Source: Chitinophagales bacterium
Lineage (GTDB): Bacteria > Bacteroidota > Bacteroidia > Chitinophagales > Chitinophagaceae
DNA length: 64,000 bases
Reading direction: 5' to 3'
NCBI GenBank assembly: GCA_038206235.1
Contig: JBBRBB010000008.1
Span: 36,304-100,303 of the forward strand
This document shows, in pieces, positions 6,993 through 63,190 of the stretch. Every line of letters starts with the position of its first letter. Position 1 is the first letter of the stretch. Position numbers and translations under genes: made by a program. Below the pieces are notes generated by a model. It had not been told where the DNA came from. It saw only the letters and a program-made list of their open reading frames with translations, and did not search any database.

Positions 6993-7023
6993 AGAAACAT
7001 TTTTCATTTCTGAACTGTTACGG

Positions 7024-7072
7024 CTGACTGCTAACTGTTTACTGCTGACTGTTTACTGCCAACCGCTGACTG
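7024..7072. repeat. Heptamer tandem array (CTGACTG-type, 7 units) abutting the rplT stop codon
   Basis: ctgactg ctaactg tttactg ctgactg tttactg ccaaccg ctgactg. The next nucleotide, 7073, begins the rplT stop codon. Confidence 0.85.
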
Positions 7073-7417
7073 CTATTTCACCGCATCTATCAAAGCCTTA
7101 AAGCTCGCAGGTTCATTCATGGCCATGTCTGCAAGAATCTTTCTGTTTAATTCAATTCCCTTTGTATTCAATGCATGAATAAATTCGCTGTATGTTAAAC
7201 CTTCTGCTCTTACAGCAGCATTAATACGGGCAATCCATAACCGGCGATATTCACGCTTTTTATTTTTGCGGCCTACATAACTATAGGTCATTCCCTTTTC
7301 TACAATATTTTTGGCAACGGTATAAACGTTTTTACGCTTGCCGTAAAAGCCTTTGGCCTGCTTTAGAATTCTTTTTCTTCTTGCCCTTGATGCAACTGTA
7401 TTTACTGAACGTGGCAT
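7073..7417 (-). CDS. rplT: 50S ribosomal protein L20
   Basis: [30 protein letters not shown]... is a canonical L20 sequence. Confidence 0.97.
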
Positions 7418-15741: not shown

Positions 15742-16746
15742 ATGCGAAAACTCCTTTTTCCTTTCATCGTTGTTTTTCTATTTGCTGCCTGCAAAAAAGA
15801 AAATCTTTCTGTTACCGAAAATAAGATTGCAAAGAATGAGCTTAACCTCCGGGTGGCTGAAACCAATATTGCAATACTTGAGCACAAGGCATTGCCATCA
15901 GCAACTGACCCCAACATCCATACGTCAACCATTGGCAATCCCACTCAATACGCATACCTGCCTGCAAATGCAACCTTGCGGAAAGACAATTTATTTATTT
16001 TTATTCCCGGTACAACAGCCACACCCGGCGGCTATCTTAAAATTGCTAAAGCCGCAGCCCAACAGGGTTATTACAGTTTTGGAGTAGCTTACAGCAATCT
16101 TTTTCCTATTGAATTTTATGAAGGAATAAATCCTAATGACAACACTGTTGAAAATATTCTGGATGAATATCTCGAGGGCATAGATGTTTCACCGAAGGTA
16201 AATGTATCAAGAGCGAATAGTTTTGAAAACAGGATAATCAAAATGATTTTATACTTAGATGCAAATTATCCCGCTGAAAACTGGAAAAGATTTTTAAACT
16301 CCAGTAATGAAATATGCTGGGACAAACTTTCTGTTGCCGGTCATTCACAGGGCAGCGACCATGCAATGTATATGAGCAAGGCAAGAAGTGTTTTAAGGGC
16401 AGGCTTCTTTGGCGGTCCCGGCAGTTTTAAATTAAACAACGGACAATATCCAACCTTTATGCAGGAGCCTGGTTTCACACCCGATGAAAATTTATATGGC
16501 TTCAATCACACAAGAGATTTAATACGCCTATGGGCCGATGTGAGACCTACCTGGGAAGTGTTGGGATTGCCCGGTATGCCTAACAGTGTAGATGACAGAA
16601 TGGTAAACGGCGATCATAAATTAACCACCTCCCTGCAATCGAATGATGCGCATAGCTCACCTGTTGCGGATGCCGCTACGCCTAATGATGCAAACGGAAA
16701 TCCGCTGTATGAGCCTGTGTGGGATTATATGTGCTTTCCAAGATAA
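15742..16746 (+). CDS. Alpha/beta-hydrolase-fold lipoprotein
   Basis: Lipobox LFAAC. Nucleophile elbow GHSQGS. Confidence 0.7.
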   Translation: MRKLLFPFIVVFLFAACKKENLSVTENKIAKNELNLRVAETNIAILEHKALPSATDPNIHTSTIGNPTQYAYLPANATLRKDNLFIFIPGTTATPGGYLKIAKAAAQQGYYSFGVAYSNLFPIEFYEGINPNDNTVENILDEYLEGIDVSPKVNVSRANSFENRIIKMILYLDANYPAENWKRFLNSSNEICWDKLSVAGHSQGSDHAMYMSKARSVLRAGFFGGPGSFKLNNGQYPTFMQEPGFTPDENLYGFNHTRDLIRLWADVRPTWEVLGLPGMPNSVDDRMVNGDHKLTTSLQSNDAHSSPVADAATPNDANGNPLYEPVWDYMCFPR

Positions 16747-16802
16747 TGTGCTAATGTGCTAATGCGATAATGCGATAATATGATAATAAGATAATGAGCT
16801 AT
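16747..16802. repeat. Octamer tandem array (TAATG-containing, 7 units) starting right after the stop codon
   Basis: tgtgctaa tgtgctaa tgcgataa tgcgataa tatgataa taagataa tgagctat. In the alternative phase the unit agataatg includes the last codon and the stop (16741-16746). Confidence 0.85.
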
Positions 16803-18483: not shown

Positions 18484-18829
18484 ATGACTTTTTTTACAAA
18501 TATTTTTATGGTACGAGCTTCGGTTTTTTATGCCTGCCCGTCCTGTTTTCATTGCATCTTCAGTTCGCAGTTTTTGTCTTATTTTTTTCCTTGTTTCAGA
18601 AATAATCACTATATCTTTGGGATGAATTAATCATACTCTATAAGCAAGATTTTATTAAAGAAGATTGGAGCTAACTCAACGACCGCCTAAATATTTCCTC
18701 ACCATAAAAACAATTTGTATGAAAAAAAAATCAACCTATTATTCCTTGTCCTTGCACTTGCTTTTTGTTGGATCTCAACGATAATTGCGCAACCAAATTA
18801 TTTTGTCAATAATCAATAAAATTTATTTT

Positions 18830-20710
18830 ATGAAAAAGATATTTATTAAATCATTTATTTTTCTTTATCTGCAGGTATGTTTTATTTACAACACTTCTGC
18901 CCAGCCGGGTAACTTAGATAAATCTTTTGGTACAGATGGAAAAACAGTTACAGAGAATACTTTTAAACTTTTCTCACTCGCTATACAAAGAAATGGTAAC
19001 ATTATCGCCGGTGGGCAAGGTACTTCTATAATTGGAACACCAAATACAAGTTTATTTGCTGTGCGTTATACGCCAGATGGTATCCTTGATAATTCGTTTG
19101 GGGAGAATGGAATATTAAAATATGCCCCGGAAGATTATATTCTTACCGAAGGGCAGTATGCAATTGTTCAGCCTGATGATAAAATAATAGTAGCCGGAAA
19201 TGGCTATAAAGATTATTATTATTCGAATGCTGTTTTTGATTGGATTGGCAACTACAACCTTATTCTGCGCAGGTATATGCCTGATGGAACGCCTGATTCA
19301 AGTTTTGGAGAAAATAGCGTAGTTATTACAGATTTTGGTGAAAGAGACTTTGTTAAAGAAGTGGCTTTGCAAACCGATGGTAAAATTATTGTAGCTGGCG
19401 GACGCAGCTTTGATTATGGCGGTACTGACAGCTTTCTTATATGCCGCTATTTGCCAAACGGTATGCTTGATGAAAGTTTTGGTGATAAGGGAAAAGTATT
19501 TGATGATTTTGGAGAATGTTCTTCCTTGGTCATACAAAGAGATGGAAAAATATTAGTTGGTGGCACAACATCAGGAAGAAGTTTTATTTTTTTCAGGTAT
19601 AACAGTGACGGCACAAGAGATATAACCTTTGACCATGATGGAAAATTATTTACCGATTTAACTAAATATGGAGAATATTTACGGGATATAGCTGTGCAGG
19701 ACGATGGTAAAATACTGGCGGCAGGGTTAAGCAATTACAGATTTGAACCCAAGGAATATTTCGGCGATATGGTTGTGCTGAGATATAATGACGATGGAAG
19801 TTTTGACAGCACTTTTGGTATTAATGGAAGAAAAGACATAAAATTTGATACAAGTTCAGATGCACGTTCAGTATCTATACAAAAGAACGGAAAAATAGTA
19901 TTGGCAGGTCTTGTAACTAATGATTATATAAGTTATTCAGATTTTGCTTTAGCAAGATTAAATACGGATGGCTCGCTTGACACCACCTTTGGAGTTGAAG
20001 GAAAACAAAAATTGGATATTGATGTAAGTGATGGATTTAATGCCTCATTAATTCTTAATGATGGAAAAATTCTTGCTGGAGGATATACTTACTCGGCCGT
20101 TCCATATCCGGGAGCCTTTGTTCTCACCCGCTACTTCGGCGACCCCATTCAACAATCCCTCATCACCAAAATCAAACGGTGGATTCGCAATCACATCCTC
20201 AACTTCCAGGATGCAAATGCAAACAACACCGCTTACTATGTAATTGAAAAAAGCAATAACAGCAGCAACGGCTTCAAAGAAGTGGCGACGATTAATCCGT
20301 CAACTGTCAACCGGCAACCAACCACCGAATACAGCTACGCTCTTCCTTCAACATCAACAGAGAGTCTTTACAGAATAAAAGCAGTTAGCAACGATGGCGG
20401 CGTTGCATATTCCGATGTTATTGCAGATGAATCAACTTTTCAACCAATCAACTCTTCAACTCTTCAACTATCCCCCAATCCCGTAAAAGATGTCTTGCAT
20501 GTGCAGGGGTTAAGTGCATCTCCGCAAGGAGTCCTTTGGACAAACAAAACAACGCTCATCATTTCAAACATTCAGGGAAATGTAATTAAAAGAGTAAGCA
20601 TGCAGGCAGATAGCTATGATTTTGATGTTAGCACATTAAAACCGGGAACATATTATCTCAAAGCAGACACAGACAAAACCAGCAACACTTACCGGTTCAT
20701 AAAAGAATAA
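18830..20710 (+). CDS. Delta-60-repeat (beta-propeller-like) protein with T9SS CTD
   Basis: About 9 repeats of the motif LD.SFG.NG/DG(K)..., a signal peptide, and the C-terminus SPNPV...GTYYLKA...YRFIKE. The start is taken at ATG 18830. Confidence 0.75.
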   Translation: MKKIFIKSFIFLYLQVCFIYNTSAQPGNLDKSFGTDGKTVTENTFKLFSLAIQRNGNIIAGGQGTSIIGTPNTSLFAVRYTPDGILDNSFGENGILKYAPEDYILTEGQYAIVQPDDKIIVAGNGYKDYYYSNAVFDWIGNYNLILRRYMPDGTPDSSFGENSVVITDFGERDFVKEVALQTDGKIIVAGGRSFDYGGTDSFLICRYLPNGMLDESFGDKGKVFDDFGECSSLVIQRDGKILVGGTTSGRSFIFFRYNSDGTRDITFDHDGKLFTDLTKYGEYLRDIAVQDDGKILAAGLSNYRFEPKEYFGDMVVLRYNDDGSFDSTFGINGRKDIKFDTSSDARSVSIQKNGKIVLAGLVTNDYISYSDFALARLNTDGSLDTTFGVEGKQKLDIDVSDGFNASLILNDGKILAGGYTYSAVPYPGAFVLTRYFGDPIQQSLITKIKRWIRNHILNFQDANANNTAYYVIEKSNNSSNGFKEVATINPSTVNRQPTTEYSYALPSTSTESLYRIKAVSNDGGVAYSDVIADESTFQPINSSTLQLSPNPVKDVLHVQGLSASPQGVLWTNKTTLIISNIQGNVIKRVSMQADSYDFDVSTLKPGTYYLKADTDKTSNTYRFIKE

Positions 20711-22774: not shown

Positions 22775-23770
22775 TTAATTTTTTTTATTTATCAACTGCT
22801 GCAATGCCGCCTGAATTGAAGGGTATAAAAAAGTGAAGCCCGTTTGTCTTATTTTTTCAGCACTTACCGTAGTGCTTTTTAAAACTTCTATGCTCATTTC
22901 ACCCAGCATCCATCTTAAAATAAAGGAAGGAACATGCAGTGAGATAAAATATTTTCCGCGTATAGCTTTTGCAAGTTGCAACGTGAAGTCTTTATTTTTT
23001 ACAGGCATTGGCGCAACTGCATTATACACACCCTGAAGCTGATTGTTTTCCAGTGCATGGATATACATTCTGCAAATGTCATCAATATGAATCCAGCTTA
23101 TCACTTGTTCGCCATTGCCTAAAATAGCAGCCATACCTTTCTTCACAGGCTTTTTAAATTCTTCATAAGCGCCGCCATCATTACTAAAAACAATCCCTGT
23201 TCTTAAAATAACCAATCGCTTTTGCAAATCTGTTACCGGCTCAATGCTTTGCTCCCATTGTTTACATGTATCTCCTAAAAAATCATCTGCAGCAAGTGCA
23301 TCTTCTTTAAAGCCCTCTCCCTTGGAGTCCCGATATTTATCGGGATGGGTGAGGTTGCAACCATACCATCCAATTGCCGAAGCGCTGATTACCGCTTTTA
23401 CTTTATTCGAAATTGTCTTTAAAGATGTAACAATTAAACCACTGCTTTTCGTTCTGCTCTCAACAATTTCCTGCTTTCGTTTCCTATTCCATTTTTTGTC
23501 AGCTATCCCTGCGCCTGCAAGATGAATAATGTAGTCAGCCTTTGCGAAAGAATCTTTATCAAGCCATCCTTCTTCAATATTCCATTGTGCATAAGAAATA
23601 TTTGACTGAAGACTTACAACTGATGACTGAGAACTAACGTCTGATGACTGCCGACTGCCAACTGATGACTGACGACTGACAACCACCACCTCATATCCTT
23701 TCTCCGCAAGCATTTGCGATAATCTTTTTCCTATCATTCCTGTGCCGCCTGTAATAAGTACTCTTGCCAT
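22775..23770 (-). CDS. TIGR01777/YfcH-like SDR (epimerase-family) protein with a 28-aa repeat insertion
   Basis: Rossmann motif ITGGTGMIGK. The DUF1731-like C-terminus is conserved. The insertion SRQSSVGSRQSSDVSSQSSVVSLQSNIS follows the second beta-strand. Confidence 0.85.
   Translation of the reverse strand: MARVLITGGTGMIGKRLSQMLAEKGYEVVVVSRQSSVGSRQSSDVSSQSSVVSLQSNISYAQWNIEEGWLDKDSFAKADYIIHLAGAGIADKKWNRKRKQEIVESRTKSSGLIVTSLKTISNKVKAVISASAIGWYGCNLTHPDKYRDSKGEGFKEDALAADDFLGDTCKQWEQSIEPVTDLQKRLVILRTGIVFSNDGGAYEEFKKPVKKGMAAILGNGEQVISWIHIDDICRMYIHALENNQLQGVYNAVAPMPVKNKDFTLQLAKAIRGKYFISLHVPSFILRWMLGEMSIEVLKSTTVSAEKIRQTGFTFLYPSIQAALQQLINKKN
23602..23685. repeat. Heptamer tandem array (NNGACTG, 12 units = 84 nt) embedded in frame in the SDR CDS
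   Basis: ttgactg aagactt acaactg atgactg agaacta acgtctg atgactg ccgactg ccaactg atgactg acgactg acaacca. This is the same unit family as the array at 7024-7072. Confidence 0.85.
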
Positions 23771-23837: not shown

Positions 23838-24395
23838 ATGCAATCATCAGTTAAAGATAAACATTACACGCCTGAAGAATATTTTCTTCTCGAGCAAACC
23901 GGTGAAATACGTCATGAATTTATTAACGGAAATATTTATGAAATGAGCGGGGCATCACGAAAGCATCATCGAATATGCAAAAAACTGCTTTTTATTTTTG
24001 AAGCTTTATTGGCATCAAAAGGGTATGAAATTTTTATAGAAAATATGAAAGTAAAAATTCCAAACGAAAGCAAATATTATTATCCCGATATCATCGTTAC
24101 CAAAGAACCTCAGACAAATGATAATAACTATGTTCAATTTCAGCCGGAATTGCTTGCAGAAGTTATATCAGAATTTTCCAGAAATAAAGACATGGTAGAT
24201 AAGCTGATTCAATATCAAAAATTTCCATCTCTTAAATATTATCTCATTGCAGAAAGCGAGAAGCAGCAAATTATTGTGGTAAGCCGTAATGCGGAAGGAA
24301 GCTGGCAAAGTGAAACCTTCGATACACCGGATGCCTCAATAGCTTTGCCTGCACTTGAAACCGAACTGAAAATAAATGAGGTATATAACAGTTAA
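23838..24395 (+). CDS. Uma2-family (DUF820) endonuclease
   Basis: EEYFLLEQTGEIRHEFINGNIYEMSGAS...YYYPDIIV...PELLAEVISE is a typical Uma2 layout. Confidence 0.85.
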   Translation: MQSSVKDKHYTPEEYFLLEQTGEIRHEFINGNIYEMSGASRKHHRICKKLLFIFEALLASKGYEIFIENMKVKIPNESKYYYPDIIVTKEPQTNDNNYVQFQPELLAEVISEFSRNKDMVDKLIQYQKFPSLKYYLIAESEKQQIIVVSRNAEGSWQSETFDTPDASIALPALETELKINEVYNS

Positions 24396-37657: not shown

Positions 37658-40147
37658 ATGAAAAAAATTTATTTTTTACTTTTTGCTTTCGCTATCTGCA
37701 CAACCATTTCTGCGCAAACTTTACAATCTCCTGAAAAATTCTTAGGCTACAAGATTGGTGAGCACTATACACCGCATTATAAAATTTTGAATTACTTCAA
37801 TGCCGTTGCGCAAGCCGTGCCTCAAATGGTAAAGATTGAAAAGTATGGTGAAACGTATGAAGGCAGAGATTTGATTGTAGCTTATATAGCTTCTGGCGAA
37901 AACATGCAAAGACTCGATGAAATACGAATGAATAATCTTCGTCTCGCAGGGATTGCAAAAGATAATGCAGCAACTGTAACCAATGCGTCTGCAATTGTTT
38001 GGCTTAGCTATAATGTGCATGGCAATGAGCCTTCGTCATCAGAAGCGGCAATGCTTACTTTATTTGCACTGGTTGACCCAAACAATTCTCAAACAAAAGA
38101 GTGGCTAAAAAATACGCTTGTAATTATTGACCCATGTCTTAATCCCGATGGGCGTGAAAGGTATGTGAGCTGGTACACGAATGCAGCAGGCATGCAATTC
38201 AATGCAGACCCTCAAAGCCGCGAACATGATGAGCTGTGGCCTTATGGAAGAACGAATCACTACAATTTTGATTTGAACAGAGACTGGGCATGGCAAACAC
38301 AAAAAGAGAGCGCAGCACGCATAAAAAAATATAATGAATGGCTTCCGCAGGTGCACGTAGATTTTCATGAGCAGGGATATAATGAGCCTTATTATTTTGC
38401 TCCCGCTGCAGAGCCGTATCACAAAGTAATTACGCAGTGGCAAAGAGATTTTCAAACACGGATAGGAAAAAATAATGCAAAATATTTTGATGAAAAAGGC
38501 TGGCTATATTTTACCAAAGAATTTTTTGATTTGTTTTATCCTTCTTACGGAGATACTTATCCCACTTACAATGGCTCTATCGGCATGACGTATGAGCAAG
38601 GCGGAATAAGCGCCGGTCTTGGCATTAAAACAGAGGAGGGAGATACGCTTACGTTAAGCGAAAGAGCGTTGCACCATTACACTACAAGTCTTTCAACAAT
38701 TGAAGTGTCATCAAAAAATGCAGGACAGCTTATCAATGAATTTAAAAAATTTTTTGATGATAACATGCATGATGAATCAACCGAATACAAAGCATATATA
38801 CTCACAGCCAAAGATGCCAATAAAATAAAAGAGGTTACTGATTTGCTCGATGCCAACGGAATTGAATATGGAAGTCCTTCATCAAATACATTGAAAGGCT
38901 ATAATTATTTTACAAATAAAGAAGAAGATTTTGCAGATGAAGGAAACATTCTGGCGGTAAATGCTCTGCAACCAAAAGGGAAATTGCTGAAAGTATTATT
39001 TGAACCCAAAAGCATGTTAAGCGATTCTGCAACGTATGATATTACTGCATGGGCTGTGCCTTATGCTTACGGAGTAAAGGCTTATGGAATAAAAGATAAT
39101 ATTGAATTGCTTCCTTATAAAAATGCTGCTGGCATTACAACTGTTTCTGCGAATTATGGATTGCTGATACCTTATACATCATTCAGCGCTGCAGAATTAC
39201 TAAGCGAACTTTTGCAGAAAAAAGTAAAAGTTCGTTTTGCACTAAAACCTTTTACTTACAACGAAAAAAAATTTGAGAGAGGAACACTGATTGTTTTGAA
39301 AGGAAATAATATTGATAACTGGAATGCGATAACAAATGAAGCCTGTAAGAAATTTAATATTCAGCCCACCGAAGCAGAGAGCGGATTTATGGAAGCAGGC
39401 GCAGATTTTGGCTCACCCGATGTCAGATTAATAAAAGCGCCGCGTGTTGCTTTGCTTACAGGCAGAGAGGTTTCTGCTTCTGCAGCAGGTGAAGTGTGGA
39501 GCTTATTTGATAATAGCCTGCACTATCCCATAACACAATTAAACAGTGAAGAATTGAGTGAATTGAATTTACAACTCTATGATGTTTTAATTGTTCCCGA
39601 TGGCTCTTATTCTTCTTTCAATAATAAAGATGTAACGGATAAGATTCAGAATTTTTTAAAAGGTGGAGGAAAAATTATTGCTATGGAAAATGGTGCAGCA
39701 AAGTTTGCAGGCATGGATTTTACAAACTTAAAATTAAAAGAAGATACATCGGCTGAAAAAGATTCTGCTGTAATAAGAAAGTTTGCAAATTATGAGCGGG
39801 ATGAATTGAGCAACAGCATTCCCGGCGCTATATACAAAGTTGAATTAGACAATACACATCCGCTTGCATTTGGCTACCCTGATTTTTATTACACTCTAAA
39901 GCAGGATGCGCACTTATATAAATATTTAAAGGATGGATGGAATGTTGGCACTATTAAATCTTCAGGTTATGTTTCGGGTTTTGTGGGCAGCAAATTAAAG
40001 CAGCGTTTAAAGGATGGGATGCTAGTTGGTGATATTAACTATGAAGATGGAAATATAATATTGCTTTCAGACAATCCTTTGTTCCGATTATTCTGGCAAA
40101 ATGGAAAATTGATGTTTGCGAATGCAGTGTTTCTGGTAGGGGAGTAG
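37658..40147 (+). CDS. M14-family zinc carboxypeptidase (long Bacteroidota form)
   Basis: Signal peptide; zinc motif YNVHGNEPSS (HxxE); a downstream HEQ-type ligand. Length 829 aa. Confidence 0.88.
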   Translation: MKKIYFLLFAFAICTTISAQTLQSPEKFLGYKIGEHYTPHYKILNYFNAVAQAVPQMVKIEKYGETYEGRDLIVAYIASGENMQRLDEIRMNNLRLAGIAKDNAATVTNASAIVWLSYNVHGNEPSSSEAAMLTLFALVDPNNSQTKEWLKNTLVIIDPCLNPDGRERYVSWYTNAAGMQFNADPQSREHDELWPYGRTNHYNFDLNRDWAWQTQKESAARIKKYNEWLPQVHVDFHEQGYNEPYYFAPAAEPYHKVITQWQRDFQTRIGKNNAKYFDEKGWLYFTKEFFDLFYPSYGDTYPTYNGSIGMTYEQGGISAGLGIKTEEGDTLTLSERALHHYTTSLSTIEVSSKNAGQLINEFKKFFDDNMHDESTEYKAYILTAKDANKIKEVTDLLDANGIEYGSPSSNTLKGYNYFTNKEEDFADEGNILAVNALQPKGKLLKVLFEPKSMLSDSATYDITAWAVPYAYGVKAYGIKDNIELLPYKNAAGITTVSANYGLLIPYTSFSAAELLSELLQKKVKVRFALKPFTYNEKKFERGTLIVLKGNNIDNWNAITNEACKKFNIQPTEAESGFMEAGADFGSPDVRLIKAPRVALLTGREVSASAAGEVWSLFDNSLHYPITQLNSEELSELNLQLYDVLIVPDGSYSSFNNKDVTDKIQNFLKGGGKIIAMENGAAKFAGMDFTNLKLKEDTSAEKDSAVIRKFANYERDELSNSIPGAIYKVELDNTHPLAFGYPDFYYTLKQDAHLYKYLKDGWNVGTIKSSGYVSGFVGSKLKQRLKDGMLVGDINYEDGNIILLSDNPLFRLFWQNGKLMFANAVFLVGE

Positions 40148-40182
40148 CGTTTATCGTTTGTCGTTTGACGTTTATCGCCTGC
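40148..40182. repeat. Heptamer tandem array (CGTTTAT-type) starting at the first nt after the stop
   Basis: cgtttat cgtttgt cgtttga cgtttat cgcctgc. Confidence 0.8.
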
Positions 40183-42321: not shown

Positions 42322-42441
42322 TATTGTAGAGGCCTCCTGCTCTCCAAATTTGCTTTTAAAGATATCATACGTTTTTAATTCTAATTGTTGACATCACATT
42401 TCTTTTCGTAAAGATAAAAAGATTAAAACTTAAAAATAACA

Positions 42442-42476
42442 TCCAACCTCCAACACCCAACTTCCAACTTCCAACA
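42442..42476. repeat. Heptamer tandem array (TCCAACN; sense to the CBS gene TGTTGGA) abutting the CBS stop codon
   Basis: tccaacc tccaaca cccaact tccaact tccaaca. The next nucleotide, 42477, is the CBS gene stop. Confidence 0.8.
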
Positions 42477-42905
42477 TTATGATTGAATATAGCTATGAAG
42501 ATGAGAGATAGTTTCTTCCTGAATAATGATTGTTTCAGTAACCACATCATTAATAGAAATAATACCTGTAAGCTTATCCTTTTCCATTACCGGCAAATAA
42601 CGCAGGTTGTTTGATGACATTAATTGCATGCAATATTCCACTGAATCATTTTCAGAAACTGAGTGAAGCTCACTCGTCATAATTTCAGAAACGGCAGTGT
42701 CTGTTGAAGACCTTCCTTTCAAAATAACTTTGCGTGAATAATCTCTTTCAGTCATAATGCCTAAAAACTTTTCGCCCTCCATCACTACCACAGAACCTAT
42801 ATTTTTAGCAGCCATCATGCGCAAAGCATCTATTACAGTGGCATTGGGTTCAATGGATGCAATGCTGCGGCCTTTACGGCTTAGTATATCTTTTACTTTG
42901 CTCAT
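42477..42905 (-). CDS. CBS-domain pair protein
   Basis: Two CBS motifs (GSVVVMEGEKFLGIMTERD and LPVMEKDKLTGIISINDV). Confidence 0.9.
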   Translation of the reverse strand: MSKVKDILSRKGRSIASIEPNATVIDALRMMAAKNIGSVVVMEGEKFLGIMTERDYSRKVILKGRSSTDTAVSEIMTSELHSVSENDSVEYCMQLMSSNNLRYLPVMEKDKLTGIISINDVVTETIIIQEETISHLHSYIQS

Positions 42906-50639: not shown

Positions 50640-51383
50640 ATGAAGATATTGGTCTGCATAAGCAAAACACCTGATACCACCGCAAAAATTGCATTTAAAG
50701 ATGGCAATACAAAATTCGATGATGCCGGTGTGCAGTGGATAATTAATCCTTACGATGAATGGTATGCGCTGGTAAGAGCAATTGAATTAAAAGAAAAGGA
50801 TGCTTCCATTGTGTTGCATCTTGTAAGTGTTGGCGGCGCTGATTATGACCCGGTGATAAGAAAAGCGTTGGCATTAGGCGGTGATGAAGCCATTCGTGTG
50901 AATGCAACTTCCGGCGACAGTTTTTATATTGCCTCGCAAATTGCAGTCATAGCAAAGCAAAATAATTATGATTTAATTTTCACCGGCAAAGAAACCATTG
51001 ACTATAACAGCGCTTCTCTTGGAGGCATGCTATCAGAAATGCTTGACCTGCCTTACATTTCGCTGGCAACAAAATTTGAACTCAATGGAGCAACAGCAAT
51101 TGTAACACGTGAAATTGATGGCGGCGAAGAAGTGAATGAAGCTGATCTTCCCCTTGTAGTAAGTTGCCAGAAAGGTGTTGCAGAACAGCGCATACCAAAC
51201 ATGCGTGGCATTATGTCTGCACGCACCAAGCCTTTAAAAGTTGTGGAACCAGTTGCAGCAGATACTTTAACTGCAGTTGTGAGTTATGAATTGCCGCCAC
51301 CAAAAGCAGGTGTAAAATTAGTGGCGCCCGATAATGTAGCAGAATTAGTTCGTTTGCTGCATGAAGAAGCGAGAGTGATTTGA
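50640..51383 (+). CDS. etfB: Electron transfer flavoprotein beta subunit
   Basis: MKILVCISKTPDTTAKI...INPYDE is a canonical EtfB sequence. Confidence 0.93.
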   Translation: MKILVCISKTPDTTAKIAFKDGNTKFDDAGVQWIINPYDEWYALVRAIELKEKDASIVLHLVSVGGADYDPVIRKALALGGDEAIRVNATSGDSFYIASQIAVIAKQNNYDLIFTGKETIDYNSASLGGMLSEMLDLPYISLATKFELNGATAIVTREIDGGEEVNEADLPLVVSCQKGVAEQRIPNMRGIMSARTKPLKVVEPVAADTLTAVVSYELPPPKAGVKLVAPDNVAELVRLLHEEARVI

Positions 51384-51436
51384 TAATGCGCTGATGAGAT
51401 AATGTGCTGATGTGATAATGAGATAATGTGCTAATG
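51381..51436. repeat. Octamer tandem array (..TAATG/..TGATG, 7 units) beginning with the etfB stop codon
   Basis: tgataatg cgctgatg agataatg tgctgatg tgataatg agataatg tgctaatg. Confidence 0.85.
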
Positions 51437-51535
51437 AAGAAAAGTGATGAAAGCATAATTTTTATGGAACCCGCATATAGAAACTTTTTCAACTTCGTTC
51501 TCCCGTTGGCGGAACTATTTTACGCTCAGTTCTTC

Positions 51536-54325: not shown

Positions 54326-55504
54326 TCAAAAATCAAGCGCTTTATTAATAAAGTTGCAAGCATGAACTAACTCATCATCGGATATTATTAGCGGAGGGCA
54401 GATGCGCATACATTCCGGCGCAAATAGAAACCAGTCTGTGATTAATCCATTTTCAATACATCTGTGAATTATTTTTTTATTGGTCTCAAAATTTTCGAAT
54501 TGCAAAGAAGCCCAAAGCCCGCAGCTTCTTATTTCAATTATCTTTTCCGAATGTATTAGTTCTCTTATTATTTTTTCTTTACAGCTTACCTCAGCTATAA
54601 GATTGGTTTGCAATAAAACATCAAGCGCTGCTTTACCTGCAGCACATGAAACAGGATGACCGCCAAACGTAGTGATATGTCCAAGCACGGGATTATGCGT
54701 TAAAACATTCATCAAACTTTTATTAGCTATAAAAGTGCCAAGCGGCATACCTCCACCAAGCGCTTTACCAAGAAGCAAAATATCAGGCACAATATCAAAT
54801 TGTTCAAATGCCCAGAGTGTGCCTGTTCTTCCAAAGCCACATTGCACTTCATCCAATATCAATAAAGCTCCCTGTTCATTGCACTTTTTACGCAGAGCCT
54901 GCAACCATTCTTTAGCAGGTTTATGTATGCCGCTTTCTGCCTGCACTGTTTCAAGAATTACGCAGGCAGTTTCGTCATTAATTTCTTCGAACACTTCATC
55001 ACTACCATAATTAAAATGATATATGTTTGGCAATAAGGGGCGATAGGAATTGCGCCAGTATTCATCACCCATAATACTTAATGCACCCTGCGTGCTTCCA
55101 TGATAACTTTTTTTAAATGCAATTATTTTAGAGCGATTTGTAAAACGCTTTGCCAGCTTCATGGCCCCCTCAGTTGCTTCCGTGCCGCTGTTTGTGAAAT
55201 AAACAGAGTTAAGGTTTGAAGGCAGATTATCAGTAATAAGTTTTGCGTAAGCTACCTGCGGCGCTTCAATAAATTCTCCATAAACAATCAAATGCATGTA
55301 CTGCGCAACCTGCTTTTGTACGGCTTCTACAACTTTGGGATGAGAGTGTCCAATGTTGGCAACATTAAAACCGGAAATAAGGTCAATATATTTTTTCCCG
55401 TTTACATCGAACTGGTAAATCCCTTCAGCCTTTACTATTTCCAAACCAATAGGAATGTTTGATGTTTGAGCAATATGCTGAAAAAAAAGCTGACGATAGT
55501 TCAT
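54326..55504 (-). CDS. Class III aminotransferase (acetylornithine/ornithine aminotransferase-like)
   Basis: SGTEATE, DEVQCGFGRTG and a KALGGG PLP-Lys context. Confidence 0.88.
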   Translation of the reverse strand: MNYRQLFFQHIAQTSNIPIGLEIVKAEGIYQFDVNGKKYIDLISGFNVANIGHSHPKVVEAVQKQVAQYMHLIVYGEFIEAPQVAYAKLITDNLPSNLNSVYFTNSGTEATEGAMKLAKRFTNRSKIIAFKKSYHGSTQGALSIMGDEYWRNSYRPLLPNIYHFNYGSDEVFEEINDETACVILETVQAESGIHKPAKEWLQALRKKCNEQGALLILDEVQCGFGRTGTLWAFEQFDIVPDILLLGKALGGGMPLGTFIANKSLMNVLTHNPVLGHITTFGGHPVSCAAGKAALDVLLQTNLIAEVSCKEKIIRELIHSEKIIEIRSCGLWASLQFENFETNKKIIHRCIENGLITDWFLFAPECMRICPPLIISDDELVHACNFINKALDF

Positions 55505-55539
55505 TGCTGATAGTTGGCTGATGATAGTTGATAGTATTT
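55505..55539. repeat. 7/14-nt periodic array abutting the aminotransferase start codon
   Basis: tgctgat agttggc tgatgat agttgat agtattt. Confidence 0.6.
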
Positions 55540-56179: not shown

Positions 56180-56399
56180 AAACAACTGCTAACAGGAGGT
56201 TTGCTGGCCGACGGAAGCAAAATCAGCTACAAATCAATATCAGCAATAGCTTCAGCTGAACATTATTAATTTAGCTTTAGTTGTTAACTTCATCTTTAGC
56301 CAAGCCCTAATGTTGTTTTGAAATTAAATAAATTGTTTCAGAGAGATTGCATCCGAACGTTAATAGAAATAAAGAAACAGATATGAAATGTTTTGAACT

Positions 56400-56434
56400 C
56401 AAACTACAAACCACAGACTACAAACTACAAACTG
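56400..56434. repeat. Heptamer tandem array (CAAACTA, 5 units) 4 nt upstream of a start codon
   Basis: caaacta caaacca cagacta caaacta caaactg. Confidence 0.75.
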
Positions 56435-59180: not shown

Positions 59181-61505
59181 ATGATTGATTATTTGAGCGG
59201 ATTGAATGAACCCCAGCGTGAAGCAGTTACTTATATCACCGGTCCATTAATGATTGTGGCAGGTGCAGGCAGCGGTAAAACACGTGTGCTTACTACACGC
59301 ATTGCCCACCTGATGGCGAATGGTGTGGATGCTTTTAATATTCTTGCACTCACTTTTACCAACAAGGCTGCCGCAGAGATGAAGGAGCGGGTAGAAAAAA
59401 TTCTTGGCAACACCGAAGCAAGGAATCTTTACATCGGCACTTTTCACAGCGTATTTGCACGCATTCTTCGTGCAGAGGCGCGTCACATTGGTTATCCAAA
59501 CAACTTCACTATTTATGATACGGATGACAGCCGCTCTGTGTTGAAAACAGTTATCAACGAATTGAATCTTGATGATAAGCACTACAAGCCAAGCATAGTG
59601 CACAACCGCATTTCCGCAGCAAAGAATGCATTGGTAGGTCCAGCTGAATATGCAAATGATTCCTATATTCAGCAGGAAGATATACGTTCCAATCGCCCCG
59701 CTATTGCGCAGATATACCATGCATATTCAGCAAGATGCTTTAAGAATGGCGCCATGGATTTTGATGATTTGCTGTTGAAGATGTATGAATTATTGCGGGA
59801 CTTTCCAGAAGTGCTTCACAAGTATCAGCATAAGTTCAAATATATTTTGATTGATGAGTATCAGGATACAAATCCTGTGCAATATCAAATCACAAAACTG
59901 CTTGCTGCTGTGAATGAAAACATTTGTGTAGTGGGAGATGATGCGCAAAGCATCTATAGTTTTCGCGGCGCAACGATTGAAAACATTTTGCAGTTTCAAA
60001 AAGATTATGATGATGTAAAAATTATCAAGCTGGAACAAAACTATCGCAGCACACAAAATATTTTAACCGCTGCAAACGAAGTAATAAAAAATAATAAAGG
60101 TCAAATACCCAAAGTTCTCTGGACAAATAATGACACAGGTGAAAGAATAAAAGTTATACGAACAAACAGTGATAATGACGAAGGGAAATTTATGGCAGAT
60201 TCTATTCAGGAACAAAAGCTGCGCAATCATTATCTCAATAAAGAGTTTGCTATTCTTTATCGCACCAATGCACAGAGCCGTGCCTTTGAAGAGAGTCTTC
60301 GCCGCATGGGAATTCCTTACAGAATCTTCGGAGGCATCAGTTTTTACCAGCGCAAAGAAATAAAAGATGTGCTTGCCTATTTAAGATTGATTGTAAATAC
60401 AAAAGATGAAGAGGCGCTGAAACGCATCATCAATTTTCCTGCAAGAGGAATTGGTAAAACAACGATAGAGAAAACTGTTATCATAGCGAATGAGCAAAAC
60501 ATAAGCATGTTTGAAGTGCTTATAAGAGCAGCAGAGTTTGGCTTTAAGGCCGGCACATTGGAAAGCCTGCAAAATTTTGTAACAATGATTCGTTACTTCC
60601 AGAGCTTGATGAAAGAAAAGAATGCTTATGAAATTGCAACGCAGGTAGGCAAGCATACCAATTTGATAAAAGAATTGTTTAATGATAAAACTACTGAAGG
60701 TCTTGCACGATATGAAAACATACAGGAGTTATTAAACTCAATTAAAGAGTGGACTGAAAGTCCTGCAAACGAAGAAGGAGAATTGGGTGATAAAAGTCTT
60801 GGGGGTTATTTGCAGCAAATAACTTTACTTACTGATGCGGATGAACAAAAAGGCGATGCAGATGTTGTAAAGCTGATGACAATACATTCTGCAAAAGGAT
60901 TAGAGTTTGCCTGTGTATTCGTTGGGGGACTGGAAGAGACATTATTTCCGAATGCACTCTCAATTAACACAAGAGAAGAATTGGAAGAAGAGCGCCGTTT
61001 ATTTTATGTTGCTGTTACAAGAGCCAAACACAGGTTGTGGCTCACTTATGCAAATAACCGCTACCGTTTTGGAAATTTAATAAAGAATGAACCAAGTCGT
61101 TTTTTGCAAGAGTTACCCGAAAATTTTTTAGATAAAAGTTTTGCGGGCAGAAGCCATACAGGCGAGTCTGTTGGTTTGGGTTCAGCCTTTGAAAGAATGC
61201 GAAAGGGTTTTGGATATGGGGACAATTCCAATGAAGAATCGTTATCTCAAACAAATAAACCCTCTTATCTCTCTGCAATATCATCTTTACCAAAAGTTGC
61301 AGAGCATATTGCAAGCAAAGATTTTGCAGCAAGCGATACCCGTAATTTGCAGCAAGGCCAACGGATAGAGCATCAGAAATTCGGTTTTGGTAAGGTAAGT
61401 AAAATAGAAGGCGGAGCACATAATCCTGTTGCTACAATTGTGTTTGAACATAATGGAGAAAAAAAAATCATGTTGAATTATGCGAAGCTGAGGATAGTGG
61501 AGTAA
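59181..61505 (+). CDS. uvrD: ATP-dependent DNA helicase (UvrD/PcrA family)
   Basis: SF1 motifs AGAGSGKTRVLT, LIDEYQDTN, VGDDAQSIYSFRGA, TIHSAKGLEF and YVAVTRAK. Confidence 0.93.
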   Translation: MIDYLSGLNEPQREAVTYITGPLMIVAGAGSGKTRVLTTRIAHLMANGVDAFNILALTFTNKAAAEMKERVEKILGNTEARNLYIGTFHSVFARILRAEARHIGYPNNFTIYDTDDSRSVLKTVINELNLDDKHYKPSIVHNRISAAKNALVGPAEYANDSYIQQEDIRSNRPAIAQIYHAYSARCFKNGAMDFDDLLLKMYELLRDFPEVLHKYQHKFKYILIDEYQDTNPVQYQITKLLAAVNENICVVGDDAQSIYSFRGATIENILQFQKDYDDVKIIKLEQNYRSTQNILTAANEVIKNNKGQIPKVLWTNNDTGERIKVIRTNSDNDEGKFMADSIQEQKLRNHYLNKEFAILYRTNAQSRAFEESLRRMGIPYRIFGGISFYQRKEIKDVLAYLRLIVNTKDEEALKRIINFPARGIGKTTIEKTVIIANEQNISMFEVLIRAAEFGFKAGTLESLQNFVTMIRYFQSLMKEKNAYEIATQVGKHTNLIKELFNDKTTEGLARYENIQELLNSIKEWTESPANEEGELGDKSLGGYLQQITLLTDADEQKGDADVVKLMTIHSAKGLEFACVFVGGLEETLFPNALSINTREELEEERRLFYVAVTRAKHRLWLTYANNRYRFGNLIKNEPSRFLQELPENFLDKSFAGRSHTGESVGLGSAFERMRKGFGYGDNSNEESLSQTNKPSYLSAISSLPKVAEHIASKDFAASDTRNLQQGQRIEHQKFGFGKVSKIEGGAHNPVATIVFEHNGEKKIMLNYAKLRIVE

Positions 61506-61533
61506 CGTTTATCGTTTTTCGTTTATCGTTTAT
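61506..61533. repeat. Heptamer tandem array (CGTTTAT) starting at the first nt after the uvrD stop
   Basis: cgtttat cgttttt cgtttat cgtttat. Confidence 0.85.
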
Positions 61534-62440: not shown

Positions 62441-63162
62441 TGGTACAAATTGGAAATTTCTTTTTCAAATACCGCAACTGGATTTTTATTCTCTTTTACC
62501 TCGCACTTTTTATTCCCTCGCCGCCACTATTTTCTCGAAGACATTTTAGTAACAACTATTATTTGTGGCCGATAATAATCGGCATAATCATAACTATCTC
62601 AGGTCAGTTGATTCGTGGCGCAACGATTGGACTTGCATACATTGTGCGTGGCGGCAAAGGAGGAAAGCCTTATGCAGAAGGGCTTGTAACAGAGGGCATT
62701 TTTAATCACTGCCGCAACCCACTGTATGTGGGTAATATTTTAATGCTGTTTGGAATAGGTATTTTATCTAACTCACTTTTTTACGTGGCGGTTATGATAC
62801 CTGTATTTTTATTCATCTACCAGGCTATCGTACTTGCTGAAGAAAATTTTCTGCGCGATAAATTCGGCGCATCATTCAATGAATATTGTGCAAGAGTAAA
62901 TCGCTGGATTCCCAATTTCAGCGGCATTGGAAAAACTTTCAGCGGCATGGAGTTTCGCTGGAAGAGATGGATACTGAAAGAGCATACCACGCAATTCATC
63001 TGGCTTGCAGGCATCATACTCATCCTGTTTTTAAAATATCCGCAGCTATCAAATTACAACATAGCGCAACGCAATAAAATTTTAATCATACTCTTATCAG
63101 CATTGGTATTAGTATATGCGCTGGTAAGATATTTAAAGAAGAGCGGCAAGATGGTGGAATAA
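62440..63162 (+). CDS. ICMT/PEMT-family membrane methyltransferase
   Basis: Multi-TM protein with LVTEGIFNHCRNPLYVGN (ICMT signature). Its start ATG overlaps the cmoA TAA (TAATG). Confidence 0.8.
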   Translation: MVQIGNFFFKYRNWIFILFYLALFIPSPPLFSRRHFSNNYYLWPIIIGIIITISGQLIRGATIGLAYIVRGGKGGKPYAEGLVTEGIFNHCRNPLYVGNILMLFGIGILSNSLFYVAVMIPVFLFIYQAIVLAEENFLRDKFGASFNEYCARVNRWIPNFSGIGKTFSGMEFRWKRWILKEHTTQFIWLAGIILILFLKYPQLSNYNIAQRNKILIILLSALVLVYALVRYLKKSGKMVE

Positions 63163-63190
63163 CGTTTAGCGTTTAGTGTTTCTCGTCAGT
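63163..63190. repeat. Heptamer tandem array (CGTTTAG/CGTTTAT family) starting at the first nt after the stop
   Basis: cgtttag cgtttag tgtttct cgtcagt. Confidence 0.7.

Follow-up and report, generated by a model that had tools for sequence, protein, structure and literature searches.

The window analyzed here, a 64,000-nucleotide stretch of a Chitinophagaceae contig with a G+C content of 37%, carries on its minus strand a TIGR01777/YfcH-family gene (22775..23770) in which an array of degenerate heptamers is translated in frame (23602..23678, minus strand). The open reading frame (ORF) is intact and encodes an SDR39U1-type NAD(P)-dependent oxidoreductase of 331 residues. The protein scores 285.1 bits against the NCBIfam model TIGR01777 (cut-off 207.35), with residues 4-323 covering model positions 1-292, and matches the Pfam families Epimerase (PF01370) and DUF1731 (PF08338). 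The Rossmann motif GxxGxxG reads GGTGMIG and occupies residues 8-14. This gene, hereafter yfcH, is conserved across Bacteroidota and lies in a conserved Uma2-yfcH-dnaG gene order. Its product is a cytoplasmic short-chain dehydrogenase/reductase (SDR) of the housekeeping type, and the gene belongs neither to the surface nor to the restriction-modification class.

The array comprises 11 units with a near-invariant CAGT core, and variation is found at positions 5-7. On the gene strand, units 1-6 are CAGTCGT CAGTCAT CAGTTGG CAGTCGG CAGTCAT CAGACGT and units 7-11 are TAGTTCT CAGTCAT CAGTTGT AAGTCTT CAGTCAA. The plus strand from 23602 to 23685 accordingly reads TTGACTG AAGACTT ACAACTG ATGACTG AGAACTA ACGTCTG in its first half and ATGACTG CCGACTG CCAACTG ATGACTG ACGACTG ACAACCA in its second. 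A preliminary description, made from the letters alone, had counted 12 heptamers over this range; 11 of these are real, and the twelfth, ACAACCA, consists of Val codons of strand β2. Tandem Repeats Finder (TRF) recovers a period of 7 at 23604-23680 (11.0 copies, 68% matches, score 63) and a better preserved period of 21 (3.9 copies, 76% matches, score 99). The linker DNA that contains the array has a lag-7 autocorrelation of 0.58 (z = 6.5 against shuffles). TRF, autocorrelation and the ORF thus all confirm an in-frame heptamer array inside an SDR/epimerase-family gene. The longest perfect period-7 tract in the array measures 14 nt, or two units. The 10-mer CAGTCATCAG occurs three times on the minus strand (23662-71, 23641-50 and 23620-29, spanning 23620..23671) with a spacing of exactly 21 nt, and this triplet is an obvious substrate for in-frame gain or loss of 21 nt.

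Translation of the region yields a heptapeptide-periodic linker, SRQSSVG SRQSSDV SSQSSVV SLQSNIS, which covers codons S32-S59 (23594..23677, minus strand). The preliminary description quoted this peptide correctly and placed it at 23602-23685, a range offset by 8 nt from the codons. Strand β2 (EVVVVS) and the near-invariant Arg33 (23672..23692, minus strand) bound the array on its 5' side. On its 3' side lies the native flank AAT ATT TCT TAT GCA CAA TGG AAT (23579..23601, minus strand), which encodes N-I-S-Y-A-Q-W-N of strand β3. The last unit, CAGTCAA, encodes native Gln-Ser-Asn codons, and the same codons are found in the ortholog P0016. Within the array the gene frame is open, whereas each of the other two sense frames has a single stop and no antisense frame is open. 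The array occupies nt 93-169 of the 996 nt of the gene, and a gain or loss of one or two units brings in stops at codons 41-57; single-unit slippage would thus frameshift the gene, as had been pointed out.

The closest PDB entries by both sequence and fold are 4b4o, the human SDR39U1 with NADPH, and 3oh8. An AlphaFold2 model based on 120 homologs has a mean predicted local distance difference test score (pLDDT) of 85.9 and a predicted template modeling score of 0.87, and Foldseek ranks 4b4o first for this model (TM-score 0.78/0.87). The modeled order is a strand (residues 3-7), a helix (12-23), a strand (27-32), a segment with pLDDT below 50 (39-53) and a strand (58-64). This order agrees with the earlier placement of the array after the GxxGxxG β-α-β unit, and the anticipated loop is predicted with low confidence at residues 39-53. 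In the model, the repeat-encoded peptide is the β2-β3 connection and directly follows the near-invariant Arg33.

Length alleles and the native linker

Relatives were sought in a database of 5.8 billion proteins, in the GTDB genomes (one per species) and in the Joint Genome Institute (JGI) metagenome set. In these collections a single relative exceeds 70% amino acid identity, namely P0002 from locus L001 of a Parafilimonas metagenome-assembled genome (MAG). It shares 83% of its amino acids and 90.5% of its nucleotides with the window gene, has the same Uma2-yfcH-dnaG synteny and bears a homologous array with three units fewer; the 21 nt missing from L001 correspond to 23631..23651 (minus strand) in the DNA alignment. 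Two further orthologs with ~73% nucleotide identity (L162/P0004 and L163/P0003) have an ordinary linker of 36 nt and no array. MAFFT places the 42 nt, or six units, missing from both at 23624..23665 (minus strand), a placement that is arbitrary within the repeat. Relative to the outgroup linker, L001 is longer by 21 nt and the window by 42 nt. The array had been regarded as an insert of 84 nt; compared with these nearest array-free orthologs the extra DNA amounts to only 42 nt, and the remainder occupies the position of the native 36-nt linker. The two alleles of the array known from all collections searched differ by 21 nt and are both in frame.

The ortholog alignment bears out that the insert is lineage-specific, since the nearest outgroups lack the array. 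Long linkers rich in Ser, Gln and Asn do occur elsewhere and are themselves heptamer arrays, so that no distant homologous segment of another construction was found. The 3' 30 nt of the array are identical to the native L162 linker at 20 of 30 positions, for 73% over the whole gene. At the 5' edge, AGT CGT CAG TCA aligns with the native AGC CGC AAG CCG, which contains the proto-repeat AGCCGCA AGCC (AGCC-N3-AGCC); the lag-7 signal of this native linker is marginal (z = 1.8, p = 0.06). The peptides Q-S-N-I-S-Y-A-Q-W and S-R-Q-S are native in other orthologs.

The window derives from a MAG, and repeats can be mis-assembled, which raises the matter of an assembly or sequencing artefact. At 77-84 nt, however, the array is below typical read length, the related MAG carries a homologous array and the ORF is intact. 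In addition, an independent Logan assembly (SRR19962011) is identical over ~3 kb including the array, which is therefore not a product of the assembly. We consider an artefact to be next to impossible.

Arrays in the same loop of orthologs

We ran TRF on 166 yfcH genes, or 150 kb of coding DNA, and counted arrays of at least 3.5 copies. Every such array is located at residues 30-36 and none lies elsewhere in the gene. All have a period of 7 except for one 18-nt repeat, and the units differ between lineages (CAGTCNN, NATCAGC, AATCAGA, ACCCGAA, CGGCCAT and CGGGATA). The linker from R33 to W63 ranges from 14 to 34 aa among the 120 homologs, with a mode of 16 aa, and its peptide has no conserved residues among close homologs. 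Across the linker DNA of 73 distinct orthologs, a strong lag-7 signal is restricted to the window, L001, L024 (ACCCGAA x7.3, 84% matches) and L085/L086 (CGGCCAT x4.7, 84% matches); once these obvious arrays are removed, the remaining ortholog linkers contain no hidden lag-7 signal. The DNA of four proteins with long linkers was also examined. Three have heptamers, namely P0016 (NATCAGC x6.6, z = 4.2), P0008 (AATCAGA x4.3, z = 3.2) and P0022 (CGGGATA x3.9 with ACGAATC, z = 6.9), and the fourth, P0058, has the 18-nt repeat. P0016 is 21 nt longer than its sister L003, and its units resemble the native GCATCGGC and GATCAG.

In a neighbor-joining tree of yfcH built without the linker columns, each array carrier is paired with a sister whose linker measures 15-17 aa. 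These short-linker sisters, found carrier by carrier, therefore point to at least six independent expansions. Judged from these gene sequences, at least six Chitinophagaceae lineages appear to have gained heptamer arrays in this loop independently. The six comparable arrays of other lineages all preserve the reading frame.

The explanation that we favor, and hold to be probable, is heptamer slippage in situ in a permissive loop, filtered for reading frame. A heptanucleotide simple-sequence repeat (SSR) would have grown in place, by replication slippage or unequal pairing, starting from native codons of the β2-β3 loop of a YfcH-type oxidoreductase, a loop that would be structurally permissive. 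Because the ~270 downstream residues are under purifying selection, only length changes divisible by three would survive, and a 7-nt unit subject to such a filter would therefore change in steps of 21 nt, or seven codons. These steps would thus yield the 21 additional nt of L001 and the 42 of the window, and they would also explain why the 21-nt super-period is more strongly preserved than the 7-nt period. Similarly, the CAGTCNN heptamer read in three phases gives the Ser/Gln/Val heptapeptide repeat. Slippage is the presumed generating process, and the insert is presumably neutral to selection. The array would by now be degenerate, forming a length-variable disordered loop and no switch, and heptamer slippage may be rife in Chitinophagaceae, with arrays persisting wherever selection permits. 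We regard the array as a real feature with an ordinary mechanism. An 8-mer intergenic array located after a 334-aa gene has kept its position between the window and L001, with a length difference that is not a multiple of 3; this is expected, because no reading frame constrains it, and forms a contrast to the difference of exactly 21 nt in the coding array.

The preliminary description had instead proposed a candidate contingency (phase-variable) locus, in which slippage by a single unit would turn yfcH on or off through a frameshift. The unit length is indeed not a multiple of 3, the array is close to the 5' end of the gene with stops following at codons 41-57, and switches are expected to have SSRs near the N-terminus (PMC3315296). 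Heptanucleotide switches exist in H. influenzae, where the tracts documented as phase-variable are perfect throughout and have 8-38 copies (PMC2651432), and indel variability climbs steeply with the length of perfect repeats (PMC3315296). The yfcH array, in contrast, has no perfect tract above two units, and its period-7 identity is 68%; the period that it preserves best, 21 nt, leaves the frame unchanged. The reading frame is intact in both known alleles and in all six arrays of this kind from other lineages, and a conserved cytoplasmic SDR in conserved synteny is not of the typical switch class. The heptanucleotide tracts of hmw1A and of a TonB-dependent receptor in H. influenzae (Power et al. 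2009, PMC2651432) resemble the yfcH array as heptamer tracts that lie near the 5' end of an ORF and shift the frame with a single-unit change. They differ in being located in surface or uptake genes with observed out-of-frame alleles, whereas the yfcH array, with two perfect units at most, lies in a cytoplasmic gene and is in frame in both alleles. A contingency locus is thus not supported, and we consider it very improbable.

Related repeats and alternative origins

TRF (score of at least 40) detects 11 arrays of at least four copies in the window, five with a period of 7 and six with a period of 8, and no other period; none occurs in 20 composition-preserving shuffles of the window. The arrays of the window are mostly intergenic. 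The related loci contain 42 such arrays in 0.95 Mb, of which six are coding. One array of the window follows rplT (7020..7072, minus strand) and reads CAGTCAG CGGTTGG CAGTAAA CAGTCAG CAGTAAA CAGTTAG CAGTCAG CCGTAAC. It starts from the stop codon of rplT, precedes a terminator hairpin and shares with the yfcH array both the CAGT core and the strand, as the preliminary description had recognized. The motif CAGTNNNCAGTNNNCAGT, with at most one mismatch, has 13 matches in the window against 0.15 expected, and all 13 are confined to these two arrays, both on the minus strand.

Recombination, gene conversion or a small mobile element might have brought a pre-formed intergenic-type CAGT array into the loop, by insertion or as a copy, and repeat invasion into a protein loop was among the earlier proposals. 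The presence of CAGTNNN periodicity at exactly two sites of the window, on one strand, is consistent with such a transfer. So is the recurrence of unit families at different loci of the window: CGTTTAT at three, GATAATGN at two, TCAAC-containing units at three and CAGT at two. Heptamers of the TAACTGA/TCAGTTA type also have a scattered distribution among phyla, and they have been proposed to spread horizontally (PMC4679880). The yfcH array, however, has no foreign flanks, target duplications or inverted ends, and both its edges grade into linker that is homologous to that of the outgroups. In at least five further lineages this loop contains different units, which in each case resemble the native codons of that lineage. 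No other protein matches the translated array; a search of the 5.8 billion proteins with the two natural alleles concatenated returned 8 word-sharing candidates, none of which scored. One pair of arrays sharing a 4-nt core is close to chance among ~15 window arrays, for which we estimate that ~0.8 pairs are expected. Nor does the array resemble a mobile in-frame insertion comparable to Rickettsia palindromic elements (RPE) or miniature inverted-repeat transposable elements (MITE): its edges are native, its translation is without a match in other proteins, and the only other CAGT array is a local tandem after rplT. The RPEs described by Ogata and colleagues in 2000 are reportedly accommodated in frame by surface loops of conserved proteins, which remain undamaged. 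These elements are dispersed and mobile, share a sequence and measure ~100-150 bp, whereas the yfcH array is a local tandem without features of a mobile element. Invasion is therefore probably the wrong reading, and we consider it unlikely.

The array may also be a selected element, either with the CAGT cores as a site acting at the nucleic-acid level, such as a platform on which a regulator binds single strands as in the 3' UTR arrays, or with an adaptive Ser/Gln-rich loop, for instance in cofactor access near Arg33. In both versions the array would be actively maintained. SDRs generally have a basic residue after β2 that makes contact with the 2'-phosphate of NADP(H); the insert comes immediately after the near-invariant Arg33 in a protein whose closest structure, 4b4o, was solved with NADPH. 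The core is kept while the spacer varies, the CAGT core is present in the rplT 3' untranslated region (UTR) as well, and the hotspot of expansion is confined to this one loop. Several results argue against selection. The RNA of the array region is not unusually structured (z = -1.6), and an Rfam scan of the whole window gave no match. The peptide is modeled with low confidence, and a comparison of close homologs shows lengths between 14 and 34 aa and no conserved residues. Because the cores differ between arrays and between lineages, there is no single binding motif. We judge a selected element to be improbable. Similarly, the CAGT array might be a nucleic-acid element like the 3' UTR arrays pinned at stop codons, serving as a single-strand binding platform inside coding DNA whose cores are kept by nucleotide-level selection while the heptapeptide loop is merely tolerated; this we judge to be quite improbable.

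Several observations nevertheless weigh against slippage in a permissive loop, the explanation that we favor. No more than two alleles of this array exist in all collections searched, and homology of its edges with the native linker is plausible, not proven, because alignment inside the repeat is ambiguous. The core shared with the array after rplT, on the same strand, and the unit families that recur across the loci of the window hint that selection or spread depends on sequence, a feature not expected from local slippage alone. The concentration of variation at positions 5-7, with CAGT kept, points in the same direction, in a weak test limited to this array (p = 0.05); a pooled test of core retention is circular, since the arrays were found by their core. 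Finally, the other length-variable loop of the protein (residues 138-152) is array-free in every ortholog, and therefore permissiveness alone may not explain the hotspot.

Among known repeats, the TAACTGA/TCAGTTA heptamers occur in Beggiatoaceae, Cyanobacteria and five Bacteroidetes, mostly in intergenic positions beside start or stop codons (MacGregor 2015, PMC4679880). In the TCAGTTA orientation they are open in all three phases, and 11 ORFs contain them, translated as LSVISYQ and in most cases placed at the periphery of the protein (PMC4679880). Units of the yfcH array such as TCAGTCA and TCAGTTG are 1-2 mismatches away from TCAGTTA, the peptide Q-S-S-V-x-S-x parallels Q-L-S-V-I-S-Y, and in both cases only the stop-free orientation is used within an ORF. 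The yfcH array differs in being degenerate, in being located in an internal loop of a conserved catalytic domain and in having a traceable in situ origin from native codons. None of its units is exactly TCAGTTA, and TAACTGA is not enriched in the window (10 occurrences against 8.6 expected); the array is therefore a relative in kind and not a member.

According to the summaries of Mrazek 2007 in PMC4679880, heptanucleotides are the commonest class of long SSR in many prokaryotes and are attributed to polymerase slippage. Long SSRs, with units of 5-11 nt, are likewise summarized as enriched in intergenic DNA, and those with units that are not a multiple of 3 as rare in coding DNA (Mrazek, Guo & Shah 2007, via PMC4679880 and PMC4692102). 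As far as these summaries go, the yfcH array is comparable in being head-to-tail and beyond chance (TRF scores of 63 and 99, lag-7 z = 6.5, shuffles); the original definition concerns near-perfect repeats, whereas the yfcH array is degenerate. It is one of the rare coding arrays whose unit length cannot be divided by 3, stabilized as a 21-nt super-repeat of three units. Chitinophagaceae are not among the taxa highlighted in these summaries.

Growth by triplets of units in a permissive loop can allow a short tandem repeat to persist in an essential-looking fold even when its unit length is not divisible by three. Taken alone, the yfcH array would be a tidy example of a known process, to which a traceable in situ origin and recurrence add value. 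One 40-nt loop of one housekeeping gene appears to have been struck at least six times, and the arrays of these genomes have units of 7 or 8 nt only and are in many cases pinned at stop codons. The loop may therefore act as a natural reporter of period-specific slippage, the cause of which is perhaps a polymerase footprint or a repair bias. The case also shows, for annotation pipelines and for structure prediction, that a low-complexity Ser/Gln loop can have a mutational and not a functional origin.

Arrays at gene boundaries and other features

The majority of the intergenic 7- and 8-nt arrays start at the stop codon that ends the preceding gene, or overlap this codon, and lie before a terminator hairpin where one is visible. 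On the plus strand such arrays are found at 40148-40177, 61506-61533, 63163-63181, 16740-16801 and 51376-51437, and on the minus strand at 42438-42477 and 56396-56433 in addition to the rplT array (7020-7075). They share a register in which the stop is the first triplet of unit 1 and is followed by a constant 4-mer (TAA-CGTT TAT-CGTT, TAG-CAGT CAG-CGGT, TAA-TGTT GGA-AGTT). We read the arrays pinned at stop codons as expanding until selection halts them, and a function in the 3' UTR may apply. Three unrelated genes end near-identically into a CGTTTAT/CGTTTAG array (40127-40177, 61485-61533 and 63142-63181): GGGGAGTAG leads into CGTTTAT, GTGGAGTAA into CGTTTAT and GTGGAATAA into CGTTTAG. Such endings point either to a shared element providing both the final codons and the stop, or to a sequence-specific seed.

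The GGGNATC heptamers of Xanthomonas and Nostoc form genome-wide families that are transcribed and, on the sense strand, are concentrated at distances of up to 50 bp from stop codons (Rehm et al. 2015, PMC4692102); the same article cites alongside them the cyanobacterial STRR heptamers (Calothrix). The intergenic arrays of this window are similarly pinned at stop codons; the units here are not G-rich, however, and the yfcH array is coding.

The yfcH gene itself has a heptamer array starting at its stop codon in several other Bacteroidota (L139, 3904-4002; L020, 3931-3985; L016, 3931-3968; L033, 2783-2810). Nearly all units of L139 open with TAA or TGA (TAAGTGT TGAGTGT and so on), which places stops in three frames, and the units of L020 have the form [NNN]AGGT, the first being the stop TGA. 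A 5' counterpart of these arrays is located at 55489-55535 (minus strand), where heptamers of the AACTATC type reach a class-III aminotransferase gene (ORF 54326..55504) and continue past its initiation codon; the gene opens with ATG AAC TAT CGT CAG.

Inside a coding sequence, the plus-strand ORF 18785..20710 contains in frame CCGTCAA x3.3 (20297-20319) and TCAACTCT x4.8 (20430-20469). This ORF encodes a DUF5122 β-propeller protein, and both arrays lie in linkers just before the Por_Secre_tail domain of the type IX secretion system (T9SS), yielding the peptides INPSTVNRQPTT and ESTFQPINSSTLQLSPNP. Longer arrays are present in related loci, with TTAATCG x19.7 (89% matches) at 1726-1864 of L002, from a Chitinophagaceae MAG, and TGAGGAAC x32.5 (93% matches) at 1966-2225 of L145, a Bacteroidota contig.

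A second lineage-variable insert of yfcH, CNLTHPDKYRDSKGE, is located at 23313-23353 (minus strand) and corresponds to codons ~138-152, with pLDDT below 50 at residues 145-148. It contains a perfect 8-bp inverted repeat, TCCCGATA and TATCGGGA separated by AA, within a longer imperfect palindrome, of which the window and the related loci hold no further copy as a dispersed element. The insert is absent from L001 and present in L165/P0006 (71% nucleotide identity overall) with 36 of 41 positions identical, an identity that is not significant once ~20 windows are allowed for.

The divergent neighbor of yfcH is a Uma2-family gene (putative restriction endonuclease-like), which forms a single ORF of 185 aa in the window (23838-24395). 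In L001 (658-1214) it is called as two ORFs of 116 and 66 aa and may be a pseudogene there.

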